NCBI RefSeq assembly: GCF_011045215.1
Contig: NZ_CP049201.1
Reading direction: 5' to 3' (one strand)
From: Escherichia coli
Lineage (GTDB): Bacteria > Pseudomonadota > Gammaproteobacteria > Enterobacterales > Enterobacteriaceae
DNA length: 64,000 nucleotides
Shown: piece by piece, positions 50,680 through 64,000 of the stretch
How the letters are laid out: the number at the start of each line of letters is the position of its first letter
Numbering within the stretch: position 1 is the stretch's first letter
Position numbers and translations under genes: made by a program
The notes under the pieces: model-generated
What the model was told of the DNA's origin: nothing
Seen by the model: the letters and a program-made list of their open reading frames with translations, nothing else
The model's database searches: none

Positions 50680-52079
50680 ACACTCGCCAGCTACTGAGCG
50701 TCGGTATCGATATCGGCACTACCACCACCCAGGTGATTTTCTCCCACCTGGAACTGGTTAACCGTGCGGCGGTGTCGCAGGTGCCGCGCTACGAATTCAT
50801 CAAACGCGAAATTAGCTGGCAAAGCCCGGTGTTCTTTACCCCTGTCGATAAACAGGGTGATTTAAAAGAAGCGGAACTGAAATCGCTGATTTTAGAGCAA
50901 TATCAGGCTGCGGGCATTGCACCGGAAAGCGTTGATTCTGGTGCCATCATCATCACCGGTGAAAGCGCGAAAACCCGCAATGCTCGCCCGGCGGTGATGG
51001 CGCTCTCTCAGTCGCTGGGCGATTTTGTCGTTGCCAGCGCCGGGCCGCACCTCGAATCCGTGATCGCCGGTCACGGAGCCGGGGCACAAACCCTTTCTGA
51101 ACAACGGCTGTGTCGGGTACTGAATATCGACATCGGCGGTGGCACCGCGAACTACGCCCTGTTCGATGCCGGAAAAATCAGCGGCACTGCCTGCCTCAAC
51201 GTCGGTGGTCGCCTGCTGGAAACCGACAGCCAGGGGCGCGTGGTTTACGCTCATAAACCGGGGCAGATGATTGTGGATGAGTGCTTCGGCGCAGGCACCG
51301 ACGCCCGTTCGCTGACCGGCGCGCAGCTGGTGCAGGTTACCCGGCGGATGGCAGAGCTGATTGTCGAAGTGATTGACGGAACGCTCTCGCCGCTCGCGCA
51401 GGCATTGATGCAAACCGGTTTGCTGCCCGCAGGTGTTACGCCCGAAATCATTACGCTTTCTGGCGGCGTGGGCGAATGTTATCGCCACCAGCCCGCCGAC
51501 CCGTTCTGTTTTGCCGATATTGGCCCGCTTCTGGCAACGGCGCTGCATGACCATCCGCGCCTGCGTGAGATGAACGTGCAGTTTCCGGCGCAAACCGTGC
51601 GTGCCACGGTGATTGGCGCGGGGGCACATACCCTTTCGCTCTCTGGCAGCACAATCTGGCTTGAGGGCGTACAACTGCCGCTGCGCAATTTGCCGGTGGC
51701 GATCCCGATTGATGAAACGGATCTGGTGAGTGCCTGGCAACAGGCGCTGATTCAACTGGATCTTGATCCCAAAACTGACGCGTACGTGCTGGCGCTTCCC
51801 GCCTCGCTGCCTGTGCGTTACGCCGCGGTACTGACGGTCATCAACGCGTTGGTCGATTTCGTCGCGCGTTTTCCGAATCCGCATCCCCTGCTGGTGGTGG
51901 CCGGGCAGGACTTTGGTAAAGCTCTGGGCATGTTGTTGCGCCCACAGCTACAACAACTCCCGTTGGCAGTCATTGACGAAGTGATTGTCCGCGCGGGGGA
52001 CTATATCGACATTGGTACGCCTCTTTTTGGCGGATCGGTTGTGCCGGTGACGGTGAAATCACTCGCATTTCCTTCCTGA
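50676..52079 (+). CDS. eutA: Ethanolamine ammonia-lyase reactivase EutA
   Basis: 467-aa ORF, ATGA overlap with eutH; ends at the island junction. Confidence 0.85.
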   Translation: MNTRQLLSVGIDIGTTTTQVIFSHLELVNRAAVSQVPRYEFIKREISWQSPVFFTPVDKQGDLKEAELKSLILEQYQAAGIAPESVDSGAIIITGESAKTRNARPAVMALSQSLGDFVVASAGPHLESVIAGHGAGAQTLSEQRLCRVLNIDIGGGTANYALFDAGKISGTACLNVGGRLLETDSQGRVVYAHKPGQMIVDECFGAGTDARSLTGAQLVQVTRRMAELIVEVIDGTLSPLAQALMQTGLLPAGVTPEIITLSGGVGECYRHQPADPFCFADIGPLLATALHDHPRLREMNVQFPAQTVRATVIGAGAHTLSLSGSTIWLEGVQLPLRNLPVAIPIDETDLVSAWQQALIQLDLDPKTDAYVLALPASLPVRYAAVLTVINALVDFVARFPNPHPLLVVAGQDFGKALGMLLRPQLQQLPLAVIDEVIVRAGDYIDIGTPLFGGSVVPVTVKSLAFPS

Positions 52080-52172
52080 ATACTGTAGTTATCAGGCGTG
52101 GCGCTGGGTTGCGGGGTGTTAGTGGGATTATATCCGGCTGTGTATCCGGTCGGGGTGATTGGTCTGTATAGC

Positions 52173-52200: not shown

Positions 52201-52764
52201 TCATTCAGGGAACAAGTTGATTTGAAGCAAACTGCCAATGTATTTACCAGTGCTTTTAATTTTTCGCTTTGATGGCTTACACGAATTCAGGTTGACACCA
52301 GCCTGGCTAGATATTGGCTTGTATTGCCGCTCCGCCAGTACGATCAGGTCTGCCGCGTCTTTTAGCTTTCCATCGTTAGCCAGTTCCAATGCTCGATCCG
52401 CCATTTGCCCGCATTGTTGAATCAGCTTAAGTTGCGATACCTCCAGTCGCAATTGCTGGATTCGTTCTACCACTTTCGCCCTAATGCGCTTAGTTTCACG
52501 CATTCCCATTCTTAATGCCTGGTTGCCAGTAAGTGAGTAAACCTCTTTTTCTTTCCTGAAGTTTGCGGCTTTACCGTCAGCTTGGACGCGCATTTTATGC
52601 GCTTCCAAGAATTCGCCCTCCAATTCATCCCTGATCTTCGCGTTGAATCTGTCGTTCTTGAGTTCATTTAACCCTTCCGCCTTGCGGATCTGGTTGATTA
52701 ACTCCAACAATTCATCACTGCGGATACGCCACTCGCTATCAACCTGTACCAAGTCAAACATGTT
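52201..52764 (-). CDS. Hypothetical island protein (about 187 aa from ATG MFDLVQVD; track ORF extends to a TTG at 52854)
   Basis: ORF track; SD-like gggag upstream of the internal ATG; coiled-coil-rich; no confident family assignment. Confidence 0.5.
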   Translation of the reverse strand, partial: NMFDLVQVDSEWRIRSDELLELINQIRKAEGLNELKNDRFNAKIRDELEGEFLEAHKMRVQADGKAANFRKEKEVYSLTGNQALRMGMRETKRIRAKVVERIQQLRLEVSQLKLIQQCGQMADRALELANDGKLKDAADLIVLAERQYKPISSQAGVNLNSCKPSKRKIKSTGKYIGSLLQINLFPE

Positions 52765-52920
52765 GTTGCTCCCGTTTTGCTGCCATAGGGCAACGGCTCG
52801 CCAGCCTTTATCACCTCCTTTAGTTGTTGCGATTCTTAACTGAATGGTTATCAAAACGCTGCGTTAATATCATTGATATGTATCAAATTTGTTTTGTGAC
52901 GCGACAATGCCTTGTGAATA

Positions 52921-55050: not shown

Positions 55051-55186
55051 TATTCTTCTCCTTTGAACGGATTGTTCTTGCTCTCTAATAACTTAGCGCG
55101 ACCCAGTAACGTCCGGGCAAGCGCCTCCGCCTTCCTTAGCCTAAGCCCTGCGTCTTCTGCGTCCAGATCTACATTCCTGATAGCCT

Positions 55187-55450
55187 CTACAGCCTGCTCC
55201 GCTGCGTCCGGGCGTGAATCCACTTAAATATGCCGATATGCTCACGAAAGTCTGGATGCTCATATTGCCAGCGGCAGATTGTTCTGAAGCTCGGCATGTC
55301 AGGCATGTTGCCAATCTCTCTGAGACTATGGCCTTCAGCTACCAGCAAGCAGATTTCTTCAGCGATAGCGACCCCATACTTAGCGCTTTTTCTGCTTAAA
55401 CTTGTGACATCAACAGGTAAGTTATTGATTTCTTTATCATCACCCTTCAT
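55187..55450 (-). CDS. Hypothetical HTH-like island protein (87 aa)
   Basis: ORF track; SLREIGNMPDMPSFRTICRWQ segment is HTH-like; preceded by the 11-bp repeat array. Confidence 0.45.
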   Translation of the reverse strand: MKGDDKEINNLPVDVTSLSRKSAKYGVAIAEEICLLVAEGHSLREIGNMPDMPSFRTICRWQYEHPDFREHIGIFKWIHARTQRSRL

Positions 55451-55522
55451 AATTACCCCCGAATTGATAGCGAATTGATAGCGAATTACCCCGAATTACC
55501 CCCGAATTACCCCCGAATCACC
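55450..55522. repeat. Array of seven 10-11 bp direct repeats (gaattaccccc / gaattgatagc)
   Basis: taattaccccc, gaattgatagc x2, gaattacccc, gaattaccccc x2, gaatcacc, read directly from sequence. Confidence 0.9.
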
Positions 55523-55527
55523 ATCAT

Positions 55528-56739: not shown

Positions 56740-57123
56740 TCATTTCTGTAAAAAACCCATACCGTGGCCCAGGCGATTTGAAATTTTCCCGGCAAGCATC
56801 CGGCGAATATGTTTTTCGTTGATGATGTCGTGAGTGACCGGATCTTCACCTTTCATACATTCCGGCATCTGGTCAAACAATACGGAAGCGCCTTCATCAA
56901 TAATCTCAGTTAAGACTGCTGGCAGCATATTAATGATGCGTTCTGCTTCGTCGTTCATTGCTTTATCGAACGCTTTTTTATCCATTGCTTCGGCGGATGG
57001 TTTGTAATTGTCGCCAGTCAGGTTAAGGTAAGTGTTGTTTGGGTGATACATGGCATTCACTCCTTTTACTTTGATTGTTGCGATTTCTTTGTTTTTGTTA
57101 ATTGTGGTGCCTTTGACTTTCAT
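56740..57123 (-). CDS. Hypothetical island protein (127 aa)
   Basis: ORF track; ATGA start/stop overlap with the upstream HNH-like gene. Confidence 0.45.
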   Translation of the reverse strand: MKVKGTTINKNKEIATIKVKGVNAMYHPNNTYLNLTGDNYKPSAEAMDKKAFDKAMNDEAERIINMLPAVLTEIIDEGASVLFDQMPECMKGEDPVTHDIINEKHIRRMLAGKISNRLGHGMGFLQK

Positions 57124-57539
57124 GCTGCTTCTTCCTTCAATAATTGTGGCAATTTGCCTGTTAGTTCGATTTCTTCATTAATAGATGCAAGTAACTGTCT
57201 CAGTTTGCGATGTAATAGCTGGTGACGCTCTCTCGGCATTTTTACCAGGTTGCTTAAGCGGTTATTCTGCGGATCGTAGTCCCGGTGATGGATATCATAT
57301 TTTCGCTCATCGTAAACACCGTAGCACCATAACCAGGCAGCCTTTTCTATTGTCATGCAGGTACGTTTTCCGTTGCTTAAACAAATGGTTATACTCAGGT
57401 GACCGCGATGTTTTTCGTTTAAGCTGCCTTTAATTACCTGGCCTGTGCTGCGGTTGTGAAATAAACCAGTTTCAGGGTCGTAGTGATATTTCTGTCGTAA
57501 TATATCAACTGATAACCGTAGTCTTGTAAGATTGTCCAT
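57120..57539 (-). CDS. HNH-family endonuclease-like protein
   Basis: 139 aa; AAWLWCYGVYDERKYDIHHRDYDPQNNRLSNL resembles the phage HNH_3 pattern (from memory). Confidence 0.55.
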   Translation of the reverse strand: MDNLTRLRLSVDILRQKYHYDPETGLFHNRSTGQVIKGSLNEKHRGHLSITICLSNGKRTCMTIEKAAWLWCYGVYDERKYDIHHRDYDPQNNRLSNLVKMPRERHQLLHRKLRQLLASINEEIELTGKLPQLLKEEAA

Positions 57540-57571: not shown

Positions 57572-57757
57572 TTATCTTTCTTCTTGTGGCCTATTCAGCC
57601 AGGCCTCGATCTCGCTACGCCAGAATAATAAACGACAATTTCGCGGCGTAAATGGTTGGGGTATTGTCTTATCTTTTAATAGCCATCTTCGAATCGTTCT
57701 TGTTGATACCCCCGCTATTAATGCGAAAGCTCGCAGATCTATAACTTCATCTCTCAT
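57572..57757 (-). CDS. AlpA-family transcriptional regulator
   Basis: Internal ATG with SD gaggt; MRDEVIDLRAFALIAGVSTRTIRRWL...LFWRSEIEAWL matches the AlpA HTH signature; the track's N-terminal extension is low-complexity repeat translation. Confidence 0.6.
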   Translation of the reverse strand: MRDEVIDLRAFALIAGVSTRTIRRWLLKDKTIPQPFTPRNCRLLFWRSEIEAWLNRPQEER

Positions 57758-57780
57758 GTTCTTACCTCGATTAAAAAGGA

Positions 57781-57839
57781 CCGCCCCCAGGGAAAGAAGA
57801 AAGAGGAAAGAGGAAAGAGGAAAAACTTCCTGGAGGCGG
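57781..57839. repeat. Homopurine heptamer repeat (GAAAGAR x4) inside an 11-bp inverted repeat
   Basis: ccgcccccagg [agggaaagaagaaagaggaaagaggaaagaggaaaaa] cttcctggaggcgg; 24-82 nt upstream of the AlpA-like start codon. Confidence 0.85.
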
Positions 57840-58537
57840 GTAATTCGGATTCCTTGAATCAATATCCCATGTGATACTTAATATTATAAAGGGCGGCGGG
57901 CTATGTCGCTATTTTTGCCATAGTGTGACACCATTAATTTATTAACAAAAAGTGCTATTTATTAAATCTTTTTTCGGCAGGTGCAAGAAAAATAATTGCG
58001 ACACGGTAGGGTAGCGGGCGATAATAATCATGTAAGGAGTAGCCACCTTACGCCTCCAAATGTGATCGATAAAAATAATAGTCTCAATTCTTTCTCCCGC
58101 TTCTCGGCGGTTTTTTTGCCTGCAATCACACATCAAAAAAACACATCGAATTGATATGCCTTTAAAACGCAATATAACGCATTTTGACGGCCTTAATTTT
58201 TGCCTATCCACTCGGAAGCGTAAGCCTGTTTTGATTCGTCTGGCGTGGAATGGTGCGGCGGTAATATCAGATCTCAGCGTTCTGTGTGGTGGGATGGAAT
58301 AGCCTGGCAGGATCTGCGTGTGATTTCATTCATCCAACCTTGGATGAATGGTCCGATCTGGTCAGTAGTCCGGCACAAATAAAAAGCGCCTGCGGGCGTA
58401 GCAGACGCTTTGTGTACAGGCTTATCAGTACGGGATGTGCACGAATGATTATACCACCCTCAGAAAAACGTTTGCTTTTGCACTTAAACGGATAAGTGGT
58501 ATTTCTTGGTCTTCATTGGTTTTAGCTCACCATAGGC

Positions 58538-58765
58538 TCATTTAGGTGCGCCCCTGTCGATAATTCGGTACATGTTCTCGGTATATCTCCCGTTAATCAC
58601 CGTTCTGGTAACAACAATCACACCGTTTTCCTCCAGAAAGGCAATGGCCCGCTTCACTCCCTGGCGGCTTACACCGGATAGCTGCGCCAGCCTGTCAATG
58701 GAGATGTTGTATTTGTCCGGCTGGCTTGTCAGGATCTGGAATACCGCTCGTGCTGTTTTCGTCAT
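58538..58765 (-). CDS. Winged-helix/HTH DNA-binding protein (75 aa), candidate island regulator
   Basis: ISIDRLAQLSGVSRQGVKRAIAFLEENGVIV HTH-like segment; divergent from the plus-strand cargo module. Confidence 0.5.
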   Translation of the reverse strand: MTKTARAVFQILTSQPDKYNISIDRLAQLSGVSRQGVKRAIAFLEENGVIVVTRTVINGRYTENMYRIIDRGAPK

Positions 58766-59037: not shown

Positions 59038-59385
59038 ATGTCAAAAATAGTTACTTTGTTTGCGACTAAGCGAGAAGGGAAATCCCTTTCTGTGCGCACT
59101 CGTAAGCCAAAAGCTATGACTGGCTTGCGTAAAACAAATCGTCTGACGCATCTTGACGCGTTAGCGTATCGACTAGGATACCAGTTGGTGCGCGGTAAAA
59201 GTGTCATGTTTCGCTACACTGCTACTCTCGATCACGAAGAAAACAAAGTGATGAATGCGGCCTCGCCTATGGCTGTACCACGAGTAAAAAAAATGACGTT
59301 CACACAAGCGTGTGATTTATCAAAAGATTTATTCGATTCACGAGAAGAACGCTTAAAGAGTGTAAGCTTTGATGGTCCAGAATGA
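59038..59385 (+). CDS. Hypothetical basic protein (115 aa), candidate antitoxin or partner of downstream gene
   Basis: ATG at 59038 with SD aggaga 5 nt upstream; stop overlaps the downstream start by 14 nt; AT-rich. Confidence 0.5.
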   Translation: MSKIVTLFATKREGKSLSVRTRKPKAMTGLRKTNRLTHLDALAYRLGYQLVRGKSVMFRYTATLDHEENKVMNAASPMAVPRVKKMTFTQACDLSKDLFDSREERLKSVSFDGPE

Positions 59386-59887
59386 ATTTATTGGTAAGGT
59401 CTACAGTGATAACAAGTTTAAAACAAACGATGAATTAAAGAGCTTTAAGGATTCGTTTATTTATCATTGGAGATATGGACATCATCCTGATTTTGGAAAG
59501 GATACTCTTTTCCATAAACCCCCGTGTGTATATCCTATCCATTTACGTAAAGTCCATGTAAATATTGGTCTTTATACCAATCAGTACGGCTATAGCGGGA
59601 CAGAACAATGCTGGGATGACTGGTCTACTGGTCGTTATGGTCCCGGTGGTTTCGAAAAAGTTACCCCTACATCTGATGCTTATCTTATATACGCTGTATG
59701 TAAAAATAGAAATGCTGGCGTGTTAGACTTCTGGTTTCCTCCCGCACACAAAAACGCTGAGTTCGAATCCTCTGTACAGTTTGTGGCTGAGATGGCTGAT
59801 AAGTTTTATGAGTCTATCAAGGCGGACCCGATGCCGCGCGATCAGAATCCTTGGCATACGGGGTATATAGTTAAAAAACCAGCCTGA
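59372..59887 (+). CDS. YafO-like toxin-domain candidate (171 aa)
   Basis: FIYHWRYGHHPDFGKDTLF...HLRKVHVN...SDAYLIYAV resembles remembered YafO motifs (FISYKRDG..PDTFGRDALY, HIHL, AHLVYC); family assignment unverified. Confidence 0.45.
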   Translation: MVQNEFIGKVYSDNKFKTNDELKSFKDSFIYHWRYGHHPDFGKDTLFHKPPCVYPIHLRKVHVNIGLYTNQYGYSGTEQCWDDWSTGRYGPGGFEKVTPTSDAYLIYAVCKNRNAGVLDFWFPPAHKNAEFESSVQFVAEMADKFYESIKADPMPRDQNPWHTGYIVKKPA

Positions 59888-60438
59888 TCCACGCAATACT
59901 GATTGTTTTTGGCCTTGTATGGTGTGGTCTGATTTGAGGCAAAATTATTTAATCCCTTAAAAAACTAACTTCAAAAGACTAAAACCAGGGGGATGGTCCC
60001 TCTCGCTCCGCTCCAGGTACCATCCCTGTCGGGATGGGTTTATTGTAGAGTTAAAATTAATTACTCACATCGTCACACCTTGCGAAAGTTTTGCTCAATT
60101 ATCATTCAAACATAGCACAAAAAATATTCGATTTAGTTAGTGTGCACTGACTTTTTTATCAATTTACTTTCATTCGAAAGTCATGGGTTAAATATTAATC
60201 ATCTGGCTGTGGCACGCATGGATTCACCGAGGGTATTTTGGACCATTTGGTCAAAATTCATAAGTACATGATTTCATGGTGATTTATTTTTCTGTATCTT
60301 GCTTTCATTCGAAAGTGGAAACGAAGAATTGGCAATTTATTGATTCAGATCATTGACATTGCATATTTGTGGCGGTTGTCACGGTTGTTTTTTGAGCGCT
60401 TCAACCGTCGATATTGAGTATAAACCCGGCCTTATAGT

Positions 60439-61644
60439 TCACGGTTCAAGTGGATTACCGTCACCAGCCAATATTGAATCAATAGCGTCGGCGTAATCCT
60501 GCATCATTGCTCGCCGTTGCTTCAGGTAGGCCGCCTGGTTATAAACGCCGCGCACACCTTTCGGGACGTGGGCCAATTGGATTTCGATCCAGTCTGGTGA
60601 GTATCTGCCAGACTCATTAAGCGCCGTTGAAAAGGTGGTCCGCCAGCCATGACCAGTGGCAATGGATTTATAGCCGATCCTCTCAAGCGCCTTCAGTATC
60701 GCGCTGGCTGAAAGTGGCTTATCCATGAATCGACCAGGGAAGACGAAAGCACTGTATCCGCTCCTTGTAAACTGGTCCTGTAATAGCTCCACCGCCTGCC
60801 GTGATAGCGGGACCACATGCGGGCGGCGGGCCTTCATGACTTCAGCGGGCAATGTGATTGTTGCGTCCTCCAGGTTTATCCATTCCCAACGGCACAAACG
60901 CAGTTCTGCGGTCCTTAATGCCGTTAATATAAGCAAACGTATTGCCGTCTGAATCTGGACGCTCCCGGCCCTCTCAAGGGCTTTGTAGAAGGCCGGAATT
61001 TCACTAATCGGTATCCACGCGTTGTGACCAGGTCGGCGGGCCTTCAGTGCCGTATCAAGATCTGCAACCGGATTCCTCGTTACCAGTTCGGTGATAACGG
61101 CAAACTTGAAGATCTCACCGATGCGCTGGCGTAGCTTGCGGGCCTGCTCCGGTGCGGTACGTTCTTTCTTCTGGAGTAATGCCAGCACGTCACGGGCGGT
61201 TATATCGACAATCGACCGCTTGCCAAGTACCGGATAGACGTCTTTTTCTAGGGCCGATCTGACCTGTTTTGCATAGGATTCCGACCACCCTCCAACCCTA
61301 GTAGCAAACCAGTCTTCCGCCACCTTCTTAAATCCTGCCGCCATGTTGAGCGCATCAATGGCTTTTTCCTTGCGGGCTTGTTCCACTGGGTTAATTCCAT
61401 TGGCAATAAGGGATCTGCTCTCCGTGGCGCGCCTGCGTGCTTCTTTGAGTGTGATTAGCGGGTAAACACCAATAGCCTGCAAAAACTCTCGTTTATTCAA
61501 CCAATACCTGAATCGCCAGTATTTCGAACCGTTGGGATGCACCAGCAAAAACAGCCCCGGCGTCAGTGAATCGGTGAGTTTATAGGGCTTGTCCTGCGGC
61601 TGTGCGGCGTCTATGGCCTTTGCTGTGAGTGGTGTCTTGCTCAA
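60439..61644 (-). CDS. intZ: P4-type tyrosine integrase
   Basis: 401-aa ORF; N-terminal arm-binding-like domain plus catalytic region (HGWRTT...RGVYN); at the island edge next to eutB as for CPZ-55 IntZ. Confidence 0.85.
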   Translation of the reverse strand: MSKTPLTAKAIDAAQPQDKPYKLTDSLTPGLFLLVHPNGSKYWRFRYWLNKREFLQAIGVYPLITLKEARRRATESRSLIANGINPVEQARKEKAIDALNMAAGFKKVAEDWFATRVGGWSESYAKQVRSALEKDVYPVLGKRSIVDITARDVLALLQKKERTAPEQARKLRQRIGEIFKFAVITELVTRNPVADLDTALKARRPGHNAWIPISEIPAFYKALERAGSVQIQTAIRLLILTALRTAELRLCRWEWINLEDATITLPAEVMKARRPHVVPLSRQAVELLQDQFTRSGYSAFVFPGRFMDKPLSASAILKALERIGYKSIATGHGWRTTFSTALNESGRYSPDWIEIQLAHVPKGVRGVYNQAAYLKQRRAMMQDYADAIDSILAGDGNPLEP

Positions 61645-61832
61645 AACCGGATACCTTGATTTAACGACTGGATAACCCCGATCATGTATCCGGCGCGTTC
61701 GGTTGCGTTCGGCAGGATAAGTAACGGGCGTATTAAGTGGAACACCTTACAGGACAAGGGCTAACGATGAAATAGAATTGTTTGCAGGCTGTGAGAAATG
61801 TTAATCGTCACTTCTTCCTGAGGGAACGACTT

Positions 61833-63194
61833 ATGAAACTAAAGACCACATTGTTCGGCAATGTATATCAGTTTAAGGATGTAAAAGAGGTGCTGGCTAA
61901 AGCCAACGAACTGCGTTCGGGGGATGTGCTGGCGGGCGTCGCAGCGGCAAGCTCACAGGAGCGCGTGGCGGCAAAGCAGGTGTTGTCGGAAATGACCGTA
62001 GCGGACATCCGCAATAATCCGGTGATTGCCTATGAAGATGACTGCGTGACGCGGCTGATTCAGGACGATGTTAACGAAACGGCCTACAACCAGATTAAAA
62101 ACTGGAGCATCAGCGAACTGCGTGAGTATGTGCTGAGCGATGAAACCAGCGTGGACGACATTGCCTTTACCCGCAAAGGGCTGACCTCGGAAGTGGTCGC
62201 GGCGGTAGCGAAGATTTGCTCCAACGCGGACCTGATCTACGGCGCGAAGAAAATGCCGGTAATCAAAAAGGCCAATACCACCATCGGTATTCCGGGCACC
62301 TTCAGCGCCCGTTTGCAGCCAAATGACACTCGTGACGACGTGCAAAGTATCGCCGCGCAAATCTACGAAGGGCTTTCCTTCGGGGTGGGCGATGCGGTGA
62401 TCGGCGTTAACCCGGTGACTGACGACGTGGAAAACTTAAGCCGCGTGCTGGATACCATTTATGGCGTGATCGACAAATTCAACATCCCAACTCAGGGCTG
62501 CGTACTGGCGCACGTCACCACTCAGATCGAAGCGATTCGTCGTGGCGCACCAGGCGGGCTGATTTTCCAGAGTATCTGTGGCAGTGAAAAAGGGCTGAAA
62601 GAGTTTGGCGTGGAACTTGCGATGCTCGACGAAGCGCGCGCAGTGGGTGCAGAGTTCAACCGTATCGCCGGGGAAAACTGCCTCTACTTCGAAACCGGAC
62701 AAGGTTCAGCGCTATCCGCTGGCGCTAACTTCGGCGCAGACCAGGTGACGATGGAAGCACGTAACTATGGGCTGGCGCGTCATTACGATCCGTTTATCGT
62801 CAACACCGTGGTCGGCTTTATTGGGCCGGAGTATCTCTACAACGACCGCCAGATTATCCGTGCGGGCTTAGAAGATCACTTTATGGGCAAGCTGAGCGGC
62901 ATCTCTATGGGCTGTGACTGCTGTTACACCAACCACGCTGACGCTGACCAGAACCTCAACGAAAACCTGATGATCCTGCTCGCCACCGCAGGCTGCAACT
63001 ACATCATGGGGATGCCGTTGGGCGATGACATCATGCTCAACTACCAGACCACGGCCTTCCACGACACTGCCACTGTGCGTCAGTTACTCAACCTGCGCCC
63101 GTCACCGGAGTTTGAACGCTGGCTGGAAAGCATGGGCATTATGGCAAACGGTCGCTTGACCAAACGGGCGGGCGATCCGTCACTGTTCTTCTGA
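61833..63194 (+). CDS. eutB: Ethanolamine ammonia-lyase large subunit EutB
   Basis: ATG at 61833 gives MKLKTTLFGNVYQFKDVKEVLAKANE (453 aa); SD gaggga. Confidence 0.9.
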   Translation: MKLKTTLFGNVYQFKDVKEVLAKANELRSGDVLAGVAAASSQERVAAKQVLSEMTVADIRNNPVIAYEDDCVTRLIQDDVNETAYNQIKNWSISELREYVLSDETSVDDIAFTRKGLTSEVVAAVAKICSNADLIYGAKKMPVIKKANTTIGIPGTFSARLQPNDTRDDVQSIAAQIYEGLSFGVGDAVIGVNPVTDDVENLSRVLDTIYGVIDKFNIPTQGCVLAHVTTQIEAIRRGAPGGLIFQSICGSEKGLKEFGVELAMLDEARAVGAEFNRIAGENCLYFETGQGSALSAGANFGADQVTMEARNYGLARHYDPFIVNTVVGFIGPEYLYNDRQIIRAGLEDHFMGKLSGISMGCDCCYTNHADADQNLNENLMILLATAGCNYIMGMPLGDDIMLNYQTTAFHDTATVRQLLNLRPSPEFERWLESMGIMANGRLTKRAGDPSLFF

Positions 63195-63215
63195 TGACGC
63201 GGAGATAACACATCA

Positions 63216-64000
63216 TGGATCAAAAACAGATTGAAGAAATTGTACGCAGCGTGATGGCGTCAATGGGACAAACGGCCACCGCGCCGTCAGAAGCAAAGTG
63301 CACCACCACCACCTGTGCGGCACCGGTGACCTCGGAAAGCTGCGCGCTGGATTTAGGTTCTGCGGAAGCAAAAGCGTGGATTGGTGTTGAAAACCCACAT
63401 CGTGCGGATGTGTTAACAGAACTGCGTCGCAGCACCGTGGCCCGCGTTTGTACCGGTCGTGCCGGTCCGCGTCCGCGTACCCAGGCGTTGCTGCGTTTCC
63501 TGGCCGATCACTCTCGTTCGAAAGATACCGTACTTAAAGAAGTGCCGGAAGAGTGGGTGAAAGCGCAGGGCTTGCTGGAAGTACGCTCTGAAATTAGCGA
63601 CAAAAATCTCTACCTGACTCGCCCGGATATGGGCCGCCGCCTGTGTGCAGAAGCTGTTGAAGCGCTGAAAGCACAGTGTGTTGCTAATCCGGACGTACAG
63701 GTCGTTATTTCTGATGGCCTGTCAACTGATGCCATCACTGTGAACTACGAAGAGATCCTGCCGCCGCTGATGGCGGGCCTGAAACAGGCCGGGCTGAAAG
63801 TCGGCACGCCATTCTTTGTTCGTTATGGTCGCGTGAAGATTGAAGATCAGATCGGTGAGATCCTCGGCGCGAAAGTGGTGATCCTGCTGGTGGGGGAACG
63901 TCCGGGGTTAGGGCAGTCAGAAAGCCTCTCCTGCTACGCCGTTTACTCGCCGCGTATGGCGACCACCGTTGAGGCCGATCGCACCTGTATCTCTAACATT
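63216..64000 (+). CDS. eutC: Ethanolamine ammonia-lyase small subunit EutC (3' end beyond window)
   Basis: ATG at 63216 gives [18 protein letters not shown]; open to window end. Confidence 0.85.

Follow-up and report, generated by a model that had tools for sequence, protein, structure and literature searches.

The stretch of Escherichia coli DNA analyzed here (64,000 nucleotides of contig NZ_CP049201.1, assembly GCF_011045215.1, hereafter the window) contains a 9.7-kb prophage-like island lying between eutA, which ends at 52079, and eutB, which starts at 61782. In K-12, this insertion site is occupied by the cryptic prophage CPZ-55. Our subject is a non-coding module of approximately 465 bp (59956–60421) within this island, which combines a GC-rich hairpin with two near-identical dyad repeats. 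It fills most of the gap between a cargo operon and the 3' end of the integrase gene, two convergent transcription units. The flanking genes are those named in an earlier interpretation of the region made from its letters alone (the sequence-only reading): a YafO-family toxin-like gene on the + strand (59369–59887), which belongs to a two-gene cargo operon ending at 59887, and the integrase gene on the - strand (60439–61644). The integrase is of the P4 type and comprises arm-binding, central and catalytic domains.

The borders of the module emerged from the comparison of islands with different cargo, among which homology starts at around 59956–59981 and ends at around 60421. On its left the module abuts the variable cargo slot, and on its right it extends, in the window, to the integrase stop codon. 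The left-hand DNA varies by strain, containing the YafO pair, an open reading frame (ORF) for 54 amino acids, other small ORFs or nothing annotated. Measured from the hairpin to alpA, the gene for an AlpA/excisionase-like helix-turn-helix (HTH) protein, the cargo slot is 1.0–2.9 kb long. Cargo-free islands have about 1.5 kb without an annotated gene between the integrase stop codon and the start of alpA.

Using BLAST, we found the module in 51 of 5,426 complete E. coli genomes (~1%), always on the chromosome and with its core never annotated. All 51 genomes cover at least 80% of the query, mostly in a single BLAST piece, and a search with the most divergent member returned the same 51 genomes. 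Natural carriers include E. coli ATCC 8739 (locus L008) and the O157:H7 strains F3113 and PV15-279. The module was also present in 12 metagenome contigs. BLAST searches of phage and plasmid collections gave no match to the module, and neither did exact-pattern scans of viral contigs (IMG/VR) or a 24-mer scan of 100,044 species-representative genomes. Matches to the two-repeat pattern in loci L028–L035 were rejected, being unrelated tandem or dispersed repeats from Bacteroidota, Clostridia, Thermoanaerobaculia and an archaeal metagenome-assembled genome that share the 12-mer TTTCATTCGAAA. Among 14 annotated E. coli loci, the element is located at eutA/eutB in 13 and at yghO/glcC in the remaining one.

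Integrase and eutB in the window share 95.8% identity with intZ and eutB of K-12; the match to K-12 (60442–64000) stops at the integrase stop codon. CPZ-55 in K-12 does not contain the module. Because the similarity to intZ ends at the stop codon and K-12 lacks the module, the latter is a discrete, separately inherited unit and more than the 3' untranslated region of the integrase gene. The comparison makes the island a mosaic, with a recombination joint at the integrase stop codon (60439–60442). In some relatives (L002, L003, L005, L006, L010 and L011), an additional 55–150 bp separate the module from the integrase stop codon. These insertions include a hairpin resembling repetitive extragenic palindromic (REP) sequences, GCCGGA-nnnn-TCCGGC, which also follows intZ in K-12, there with a T-tract, and probably serves as the terminator of the integrase gene itself. 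Its 5' half has been lost from the window.

Within the module, the 15-mer CTTTCATTCGAAAGT is present at 60167–60181 and 60302–60316 on the + strand, 135 bp apart, and, as the sequence-only reading had reported, occurs exactly twice in the window. No third copy was found in the 64 kb at up to 2 mismatches; with 3 mismatches allowed, the sole extra match, at 63510 within the eut genes, was unrelated. Two matches were obtained in none of 100 dinucleotide shuffles. Each copy is indeed internally palindromic, forming a dyad of the type (A/G)CTTTC-ATTC-GAAAGT, with arms of 5–6 bp around a non-palindromic 4-bp spacer. Copy 1 (60166–60181) reads ACTTTC-ATTC-GAAAGT and copy 2 (60301–60316) reads GCTTTC-ATTC-GAAAGT, both following a T-rich tract. 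The similarity between the two copies reaches about 30 nt upstream through this tract (ATTTTT..TTTRCTTTCATTCGAAAG) and is at chance level farther out (29% identity). Since the spacer ATTC is non-palindromic and conserved as strongly as the arms, the copies have an orientation and are direct repeats, not plain palindromes.

Conservation across related islands, on which the sequence-only reading had staked the significance of the repeats, was found in all 26 related loci; the presence of two dyads of one sequence is what an operator pair would show. The start-to-start spacing is 135 bp in 17 of the 18 loci where both copies are exact, and 134 bp in L024. No 15-nt window of the module is more strongly conserved than copy 1 (0.987, compared to a module mean of 0.913), while copy 2 reaches 0.971. 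In the 15 BLAST-derived sequences used to count variable columns, 1 of 14 columns varies in copy 1 and 2 of 14 in copy 2; treated together as pre-specified 14-mers, they vary in 3 of 28 columns, where the background is 38.6% (binomial p = 0.0012). No part of the module varies less than the two dyad repeats, whose spacing is fixed. Furthermore, their half-site CGAAAGT is found at 60083, 60175 and 60310, that is, three times in 230 bp, as opposed to 17 times in the whole 64-kb window on both strands. At 10.4 bp per helical turn, the spacings of 93 and 135 bp come to approximately 9 and 13 turns. The additional half-site at 60083 is part of the block GCGAAAGTTTTGC (60082–60094), within the longest invariant run of the module (14 nt, 60082–60095).

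The constraint extends to the module core (60030–60425), which has a mean identity of 87% compared to 74% at integrase four-fold sites, being higher in 220 of 231 pairs, although this comparison is not a clean rate test because recombination has mixed the histories of module and integrase. The indel pattern lends independent support: the core is present at full length in all 51 genomes, and in length the 24 aligned sequences differ by 1-nt insertions or deletions (indels) only; both flanks show large replacements.

The GC-rich hairpin described in the sequence-only reading is real, even though the coordinates given for it there (about 59988–60025) were off by 1–2 nt. It spans 59990–60026, with two 12-nt arms (59990–60001 and 60015–60026) that are 92% complementary and enclose a 13-nt C/T-rich loop. 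A third segment absent from that reading, GGGATGG at 60031–60037, repeats the 5' arm and can pair with the 3' arm instead. The hairpin belongs to a 41-bp unit (59990–60030) composed of GGGATGGT, a 21-nt C/T-rich center, ACCATCCC and a 4-nt spacer, or in other words GGGATGGTCCCTCTCGCTnCGCTCnAGGTACCATCCC plus the spacer. This inverted repeat is at the same time a variable-number tandem repeat. Most loci have one copy, whereas two are found in L006, three in L012 and L020, and four in L014, for which Tandem Repeats Finder returned a period of 41 with 3.9 copies and 100% matches. The integrase protein is the same in L012 and L014, and their cores resemble the window to an equal degree, yet these loci are one hairpin unit apart, showing that the copy number changes fast. 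The possibility of an REP-like dispersed repeat was rejected, the hairpin unit being found only at this locus in E. coli.

Three stem pairs of the hairpin carry double, pairing-preserving changes in the lineage of L007, L008 and L025; 98.9% of cells in the stem are paired. In the sequences of this lineage, a matching change is also present in the third segment, producing one compensatory pair in the alternative hairpin, so that both alternative pairings are kept. All compensatory changes in the hairpin are confined to this one lineage. The loop core CTCGCTnCGCTC is unchanged, and the folding z-scores of 100-nt windows containing the hairpin range from -2.1 to -3.4, with -2.7 to -3.4 for the 41-bp unit itself.

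The alternative pairing yields a terminator-like hairpin on the + strand, CCATCCC-TGTC-GGGATGG followed by GTTTATTGTA (60020–60046), which is located downstream of the cargo operon with the YafO-like gene. It passes the terminator scan, its T-rich tail beginning with GTTTATT, and an equivalent site is carried by L008. A cargo-gene terminator, one of the elements that the sequence-only reading expected at this position, has a counterpart in this site, and a cargo-terminator role for the hairpin is plausible. To the left of the hairpin lies an A-rich flank, CTTAAAAAACTAACTTCAAAAGACTAAAACCAGG (59956–59989), which is T-rich on the - strand and is kept in most loci whatever the cargo beyond it. The A-rich DNA on one side of the hairpin and the T-rich DNA on the other are arranged as in a two-way terminator. 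The - strand T-tract, which starts 4–5 nt beyond the stem, fails the terminator scan. Terminator-like sites were found on the + strand only, at 60020–60046 and 60367–60393, and none passes on the - strand. The second site is a weak hairpin with 3 GC pairs, followed by TTGTTTTTTG, which passes the scan and also contains the dyad TGTGR-N6-TCACG (60368–60383). Its stem reads GTGAC-GGTT-GTCAC in most relatives and is weakened to GTGGC in the window.

Several further motifs lie between these elements. Midway between the repeats, an imperfect dyad, TTTTG(G)ACCA-nn-TGGTCAAAA (60236–60256), is kept in 22 of the 24 sequences and has diverged in L016 and L024. An invariant block, CAATTTATTGATTnAnATCAT (60333–60353), consists of invariant runs of 12 and 9 nt in the BLAST-derived sequences. 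On the - strand, positions 60345–60333 read AATCAATAAATTG, an exact match, within an invariant run, to what we take to be the core consensus of integration host factor (IHF), WATCAANNNNTTR. In a comparison by eye of the dyads with the consensus sequences that we assume for FNR, CRP, Fur, ArcA, OmpR and IHF, which does not amount to a test, the IHF core alone was matched exactly. The dyad TTGAT-N4-ATCAT (60340–60353) overlaps both the IHF-consensus match and the -35 element of a weak promoter-like pair on the + strand, TTGATT-16-(C/T/A)ATATT (60340–60367). The -35 element, the A at -11 and the T at -7 of this pair are invariant in all sequences; the version in the window, TTGATT-16-CATATT, scores below shuffle level, while TTGATT-16-TATATT in L008 passes the scan. 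No sigma-70-like site was found in 59700–60600, compared to 2.4 expected.

The module is not protein-coding and is not a stably folded RNA. The region had been assumed to be non-coding in the sequence-only reading, and this held: there is no conserved ORF and no codon periodicity, and 1-nt indels are scattered over about 6 alignment columns of the 24 aligned sequences. No ORF is common to all 24. In each candidate frame, the first, second and third codon positions have similar numbers of variable columns (for example, 37/39/39), and conceptual translations of the long frames gave no Pfam match at E = 10 and no PHROG match at E = 0.01. A protein-coding gene was rejected on the basis of ORF conservation, the codon-position test and the Pfam and PHROG searches. 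A stop-free + strand frame of 79–103 codons is nevertheless present in 11 of the 24 sequences (60032–60340 in the window), with both 15-mers in frame, reading LLSFES. It has no usable start, since in most variants an in-frame ATG in the hairpin is followed by TAG in the loop. Between the window and L019, the only pair compared and by eye, amino-acid identity is approximately 79% over 42 residues, lower than the nucleotide identity of 88% over the core. The open frame may be the trace of an ancient gene.

A structured RNA was likewise rejected on either strand outside the hairpin, given the weak covariation and ordinary folding energies. RNAalifold gave -36.6 kcal/mol with a covariation term of -2.3 for the + strand and -18.9 with -1.8 for the - strand, and the folding z-scores of 100-nt windows excluding the hairpin range from -1.4 to +0.7. 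Changes inside the small hairpins of the 15-mers are single-sided or restricted to the loop in the 24 aligned sequences, and never compensatory. A permissive search of Rfam 15 returned only two chance-level matches, to eukaryotic snoRNA models (E = 0.51 and 2.3), and a search of three related loci at the gathering score returned nothing.

The core genes of the island are all on the - strand. They include an antirepressor-like gene (52201–52854), a small-terminase-like gene (55053–55450), an HNH endonuclease gene (57120–57539) and alpA (57572–57862), as well as several further small ORFs. The small-terminase-like gene, whose relative in L001 is annotated as 'terminase small subunit-like', is frameshifted in the window and split near 55208, which makes the island copy of the window probably defective. 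Directly upstream of it with respect to the - strand, approximately seven tandem 11-bp units, CGAATT(GATAG/ACCCC), are found at 55451–55523, each spanning one helical turn. L001 and L019 share this array, which may be a terminase-binding (pac/cos) or iteron site. Upstream of the alpA-like gene, at around 58054–58366 in the window and around 1900–3000 in L007 and L008, is a second conserved patch that carries no annotation. Finally, the cargo slot between the integrase gene and alpA also encodes a 75-amino-acid winged-helix HTH protein (58538–58765, - strand). The only similarity of this stand-alone domain is to the part of phage replication initiators that binds DNA through a winged helix (lambda O-like and DnaD-like PHROGs; E = 6e-8 to 1e-6).

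The junctions of the island are located at approximately 52141, at the end of eutA, and 61685, at the 5' end of the integrase gene beside eutB. As they lie on the other side of the integrase gene, the repeats are 1.3–1.5 kb from the right-hand junction. Both ends of the island carry (G)TATCCGG / CCGGATA motifs (at 52131, 52143, 61647 and 61687), and a 9-bp direct repeat, TGTATCCGG, is found at 52141 and 61685. These motifs and the 9-bp repeat are likely the core or arm sites of the integrase and mark the boundaries of the island. No further copy of the 15- or 16-mer was found in the island, including the junction regions, with 3 mismatches allowed. The suggestion of the sequence-only reading that the repeats could be integrase arm-type sites is not supported by these positions, which are beyond the integrase gene and carry another motif.

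We tentatively favor, at somewhat less than even confidence, the interpretation that the module is a cis-acting DNA element at the edge of the cargo slot, in which transcription-stop or insulator elements are combined with in-phase putative protein-binding dyads. The hairpin, the T-rich tract flanking it and the weak hairpin at 60367–60393 would stop + strand transcripts from the cargo before they enter the integrase gene in antisense orientation. A dimeric protein may bind the two 16-bp dyads and the half-site CGAAAGT on the same helical face and, together with the IHF-type bend site beside copy 2, could form a looped nucleoprotein complex. Such a complex would either keep the AT-rich, promoter-poor module silent or control the passage of transcription between the integrase gene and the alpA-led operon. 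An operator-like role for the repeats is plausible.

Several observations weigh against this interpretation. The minimum-free-energy fold of the + strand is the long hairpin, which is more stable than the terminator hairpin and would sequester the 5' arm of the latter. Island L009 has lost the hairpin entirely, and the terminator-like site at 60367–60393 is not conserved in five sequences (L003, L010, L020, L021 and L022). No promoter above chance was found at the dyads or in the interval that they enclose, the highest score with a position-weight matrix (7.7) being lower than the shuffle mean maximum of 9.2, which leaves nothing obvious for an operator to control. The identities of the core and of the integrase four-fold sites are only weakly correlated (r = 0.27), indicating partly separate histories of module and integrase, and a K-12-type integrase is joined to the module exactly at the stop codon. 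Outside the repeats, variable sites show no significant clustering (p = 0.24; p = 0.13 for the longest invariant run), so that the other motifs are taken as leads only and not claimed as sites; most conserved 'blocks' there may be due to chance. Finally, no co-inherited cognate regulator was found among the 13 island proteins tested over the 26 loci, and the alpA alleles are 33–53% identical while the repeats are invariant.

The same comparison bears on the identity of the dyad-binding protein. The 75-amino-acid HTH protein, for which footprinting on the repeats had been proposed, is not supported as an obligate partner, as it was detected in 11 of the 26 loci while the repeats are present in all 26. 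It is absent from at least 8 E. coli loci with sequence covering the whole slot to alpA. Out of the 13 proteins, the integrase alone is found at high identity (90–95%) in 25 of the 26 loci. Given that the HTH protein is patchily distributed, that alpA is divergent, that the junction sites of the integrase differ from the repeats and that K-12, with the same type of integrase, lacks the module, a host protein is the most economical candidate. The binder is probably a host factor, with the integrase being less likely.

Other explanations account for parts of these data. The module might be the decayed remnant of a + strand cargo gene with its own terminator and without present function, the 15-mers being relics of an internal duplication and the conservation a result of recent ancestry and recombinational spread. 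We consider this rather unlikely, and keep it as a rival because the + frame is open in 11 of the 24 sequences with both 15-mers in frame, which is unexpected at ~36% GC. The frame also ends about 25 nt before the terminator-like site at 60367–60393, and the missing promoter and RNA structure, the lack of significant overall clustering of variable sites and the decoupled histories of module and integrase would all suit a dead gene. However, the frame offers no usable start codon and no family match even at E = 10. Persistence at full length in 51 genomes with 1-nt indels only, while the flanks were replaced, is not expected of dead bacterial DNA; moreover, the pre-specified repeats are less variable than the rest (p = 0.0012), and the divergence is about half of that at integrase four-fold sites. 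Alternatively, the two + strand terminator-like sites could bracket an unrecognized non-coding RNA gene of about 300–340 nt, in which the small hairpins ACUUUC-AUUC-GAAAGU would be repeated recognition or pairing motifs; a variant of this idea is a short RNA antisense to the integrase, transcribed from the weak promoter TTGATT-16-(C/T)ATATT (60340–60367). Constraint without a coding signal is consistent with an RNA gene, as are the invariant positions of that promoter, which passed the promoter scan in L008, and the presence in several relatives of the - strand terminator hairpin of the integrase beyond the right-hand site, the usual layout of convergent units. An RNA gene nevertheless appears doubtful to us: Rfam provided no credible match even at E = 10, there is no promoter near the left end and the best promoter scores are below shuffle level, covariation is almost absent from the weak consensus folds of both strands, folding energies are ordinary, the small hairpins show no compensatory changes and the right-hand terminator is not conserved in five sequences.

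A more elaborate proposal, which we regard as improbable, would make the module a self-contained regulatory device of satellite-like islands at the CPZ-55 site. It would be either an activator-dependent RNA gene between two terminators or a copy-number-variable attenuator with an antiterminator (A:B) and a terminator (B:A') pairing, and in either case the in-phase dyads would dock the switching factor. In the attenuator version, the array of 41-bp hairpins would set the passage of transcription between the cargo slot and the integrase and alpA genes. An island replication origin or packaging (pac/cos) site, with the repeats as iterons or terminase sites and the GC-rich dyad as a cleavage or unwinding site, is very unlikely. 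The AT-richness, direct repeats, several dyads and IHF-consensus match of the module would fit such a site, and the island has HNH and small-terminase-like genes and, in its cargo, a protein resembling the DNA-binding domain of replication initiators. However, that protein is absent from most carriers, and no replication initiator or primase gene was recognized in the island. Two full repeats at 135 bp with one half-site do not constitute a regular iteron array, 0–4 hairpin copies are awkward for a cleavage site, and the 11-bp array at 55451–55523 upstream of the small-terminase-like gene is a far better candidate. We give very little credence to the module being part of an attP-type site with the repeats as integrase arm-type sites. 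Even though direct repeats in AT-rich DNA with an IHF-consensus match lie just downstream of the gene for an integrase with an arm-binding domain, the only one of the 13 tested proteins present at high identity in 25 of the 26 loci, the junctions are 1.3–1.5 kb or more away and carry (G)TATCCGG, with the 15-mer absent there even at 3 mismatches, and in K-12 the CPZ-55 integrase, which is 96% identical, occupies the same site without the module.

The cis-acting insulator and operator element that we favor has features in common with several known systems. Like intrinsic terminators and insulators, it has a GC-rich stem-loop with a T-rich tract after the cargo operon, an A-rich tract on the opposite side and a second weak hairpin with a T-tract before the integrase 3' end; unlike them, its terminator stem shares an arm with a longer, more stable hairpin, and the unit is repeated 0–4 times. 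Looping operator pairs include lac O1/O3, gal OE/OI and the deo operators. The near-identical dyads of the module at a fixed 135 bp (~13 turns), the half-site 93 bp further and the IHF-consensus bend site are reminiscent of these, whereas the spacer is non-palindromic and there is neither a promoter above chance nor a cognate repressor gene. Type III toxin-antitoxin loci consist of a ToxI-type tandem RNA repeat, a terminator and a toxin gene. The module similarly has, in the cargo region of a mobile element, a ~41-nt tandem array whose last unit is partial and which precedes a terminator-like T-tract, but it lacks a downstream toxin ORF or Pfam match, and its copies are usually one and can be zero. 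In phage lambda, sib / tI mediates retroregulation downstream of int. The hairpin of the module also lies downstream of an integrase gene and, having alternative pairings, could in principle distinguish terminated from read-through transcripts; in contrast to sib, it is 410 nt from the integrase stop codon, has a 12-bp stem and in several relatives is preceded by a separate integrase terminator.

The gene order of the island, with int, a variable slot, an alpA-type regulator and packaging-type genes, resembles the hotspots of phage-inducible chromosomal islands (PICIs), and its slot cargo likewise differs by strain (YafO-like toxin pair, small winged-helix HTH protein). According to the available text of PMC6092414, the accessory genes of PICIs are found either at the element's 3' end or in the interval from int to stl, a regulator gene; a 465-bp non-coding module with dyads and a tandem hairpin at the border of such a hotspot is not described in that text. 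The island has no recognizable primase or replicase gene and is not a demonstrated PICI. A search of the literature on CPZ-55 and intZ found nothing relevant. The module fits no named family; it resembles an intergenic insulator or operator region combined with the flank of an accessory-gene hotspot, and is best grouped with conserved cis-acting DNA found between the genes of mobile elements.

As about 1% of E. coli genomes contain the module, it is of modest general importance. If functional, it would be a fixed element for control or insulation, bordering a slot of exchangeable cargo, in a family of islands in the ethanolamine (eut) operon of E. coli that has received little study. The hairpin with its 0–4 copies would provide a handle on tunable read-through, and the module would help to explain how toxin and defense cargo can be swapped without disturbing the control of the integrase.

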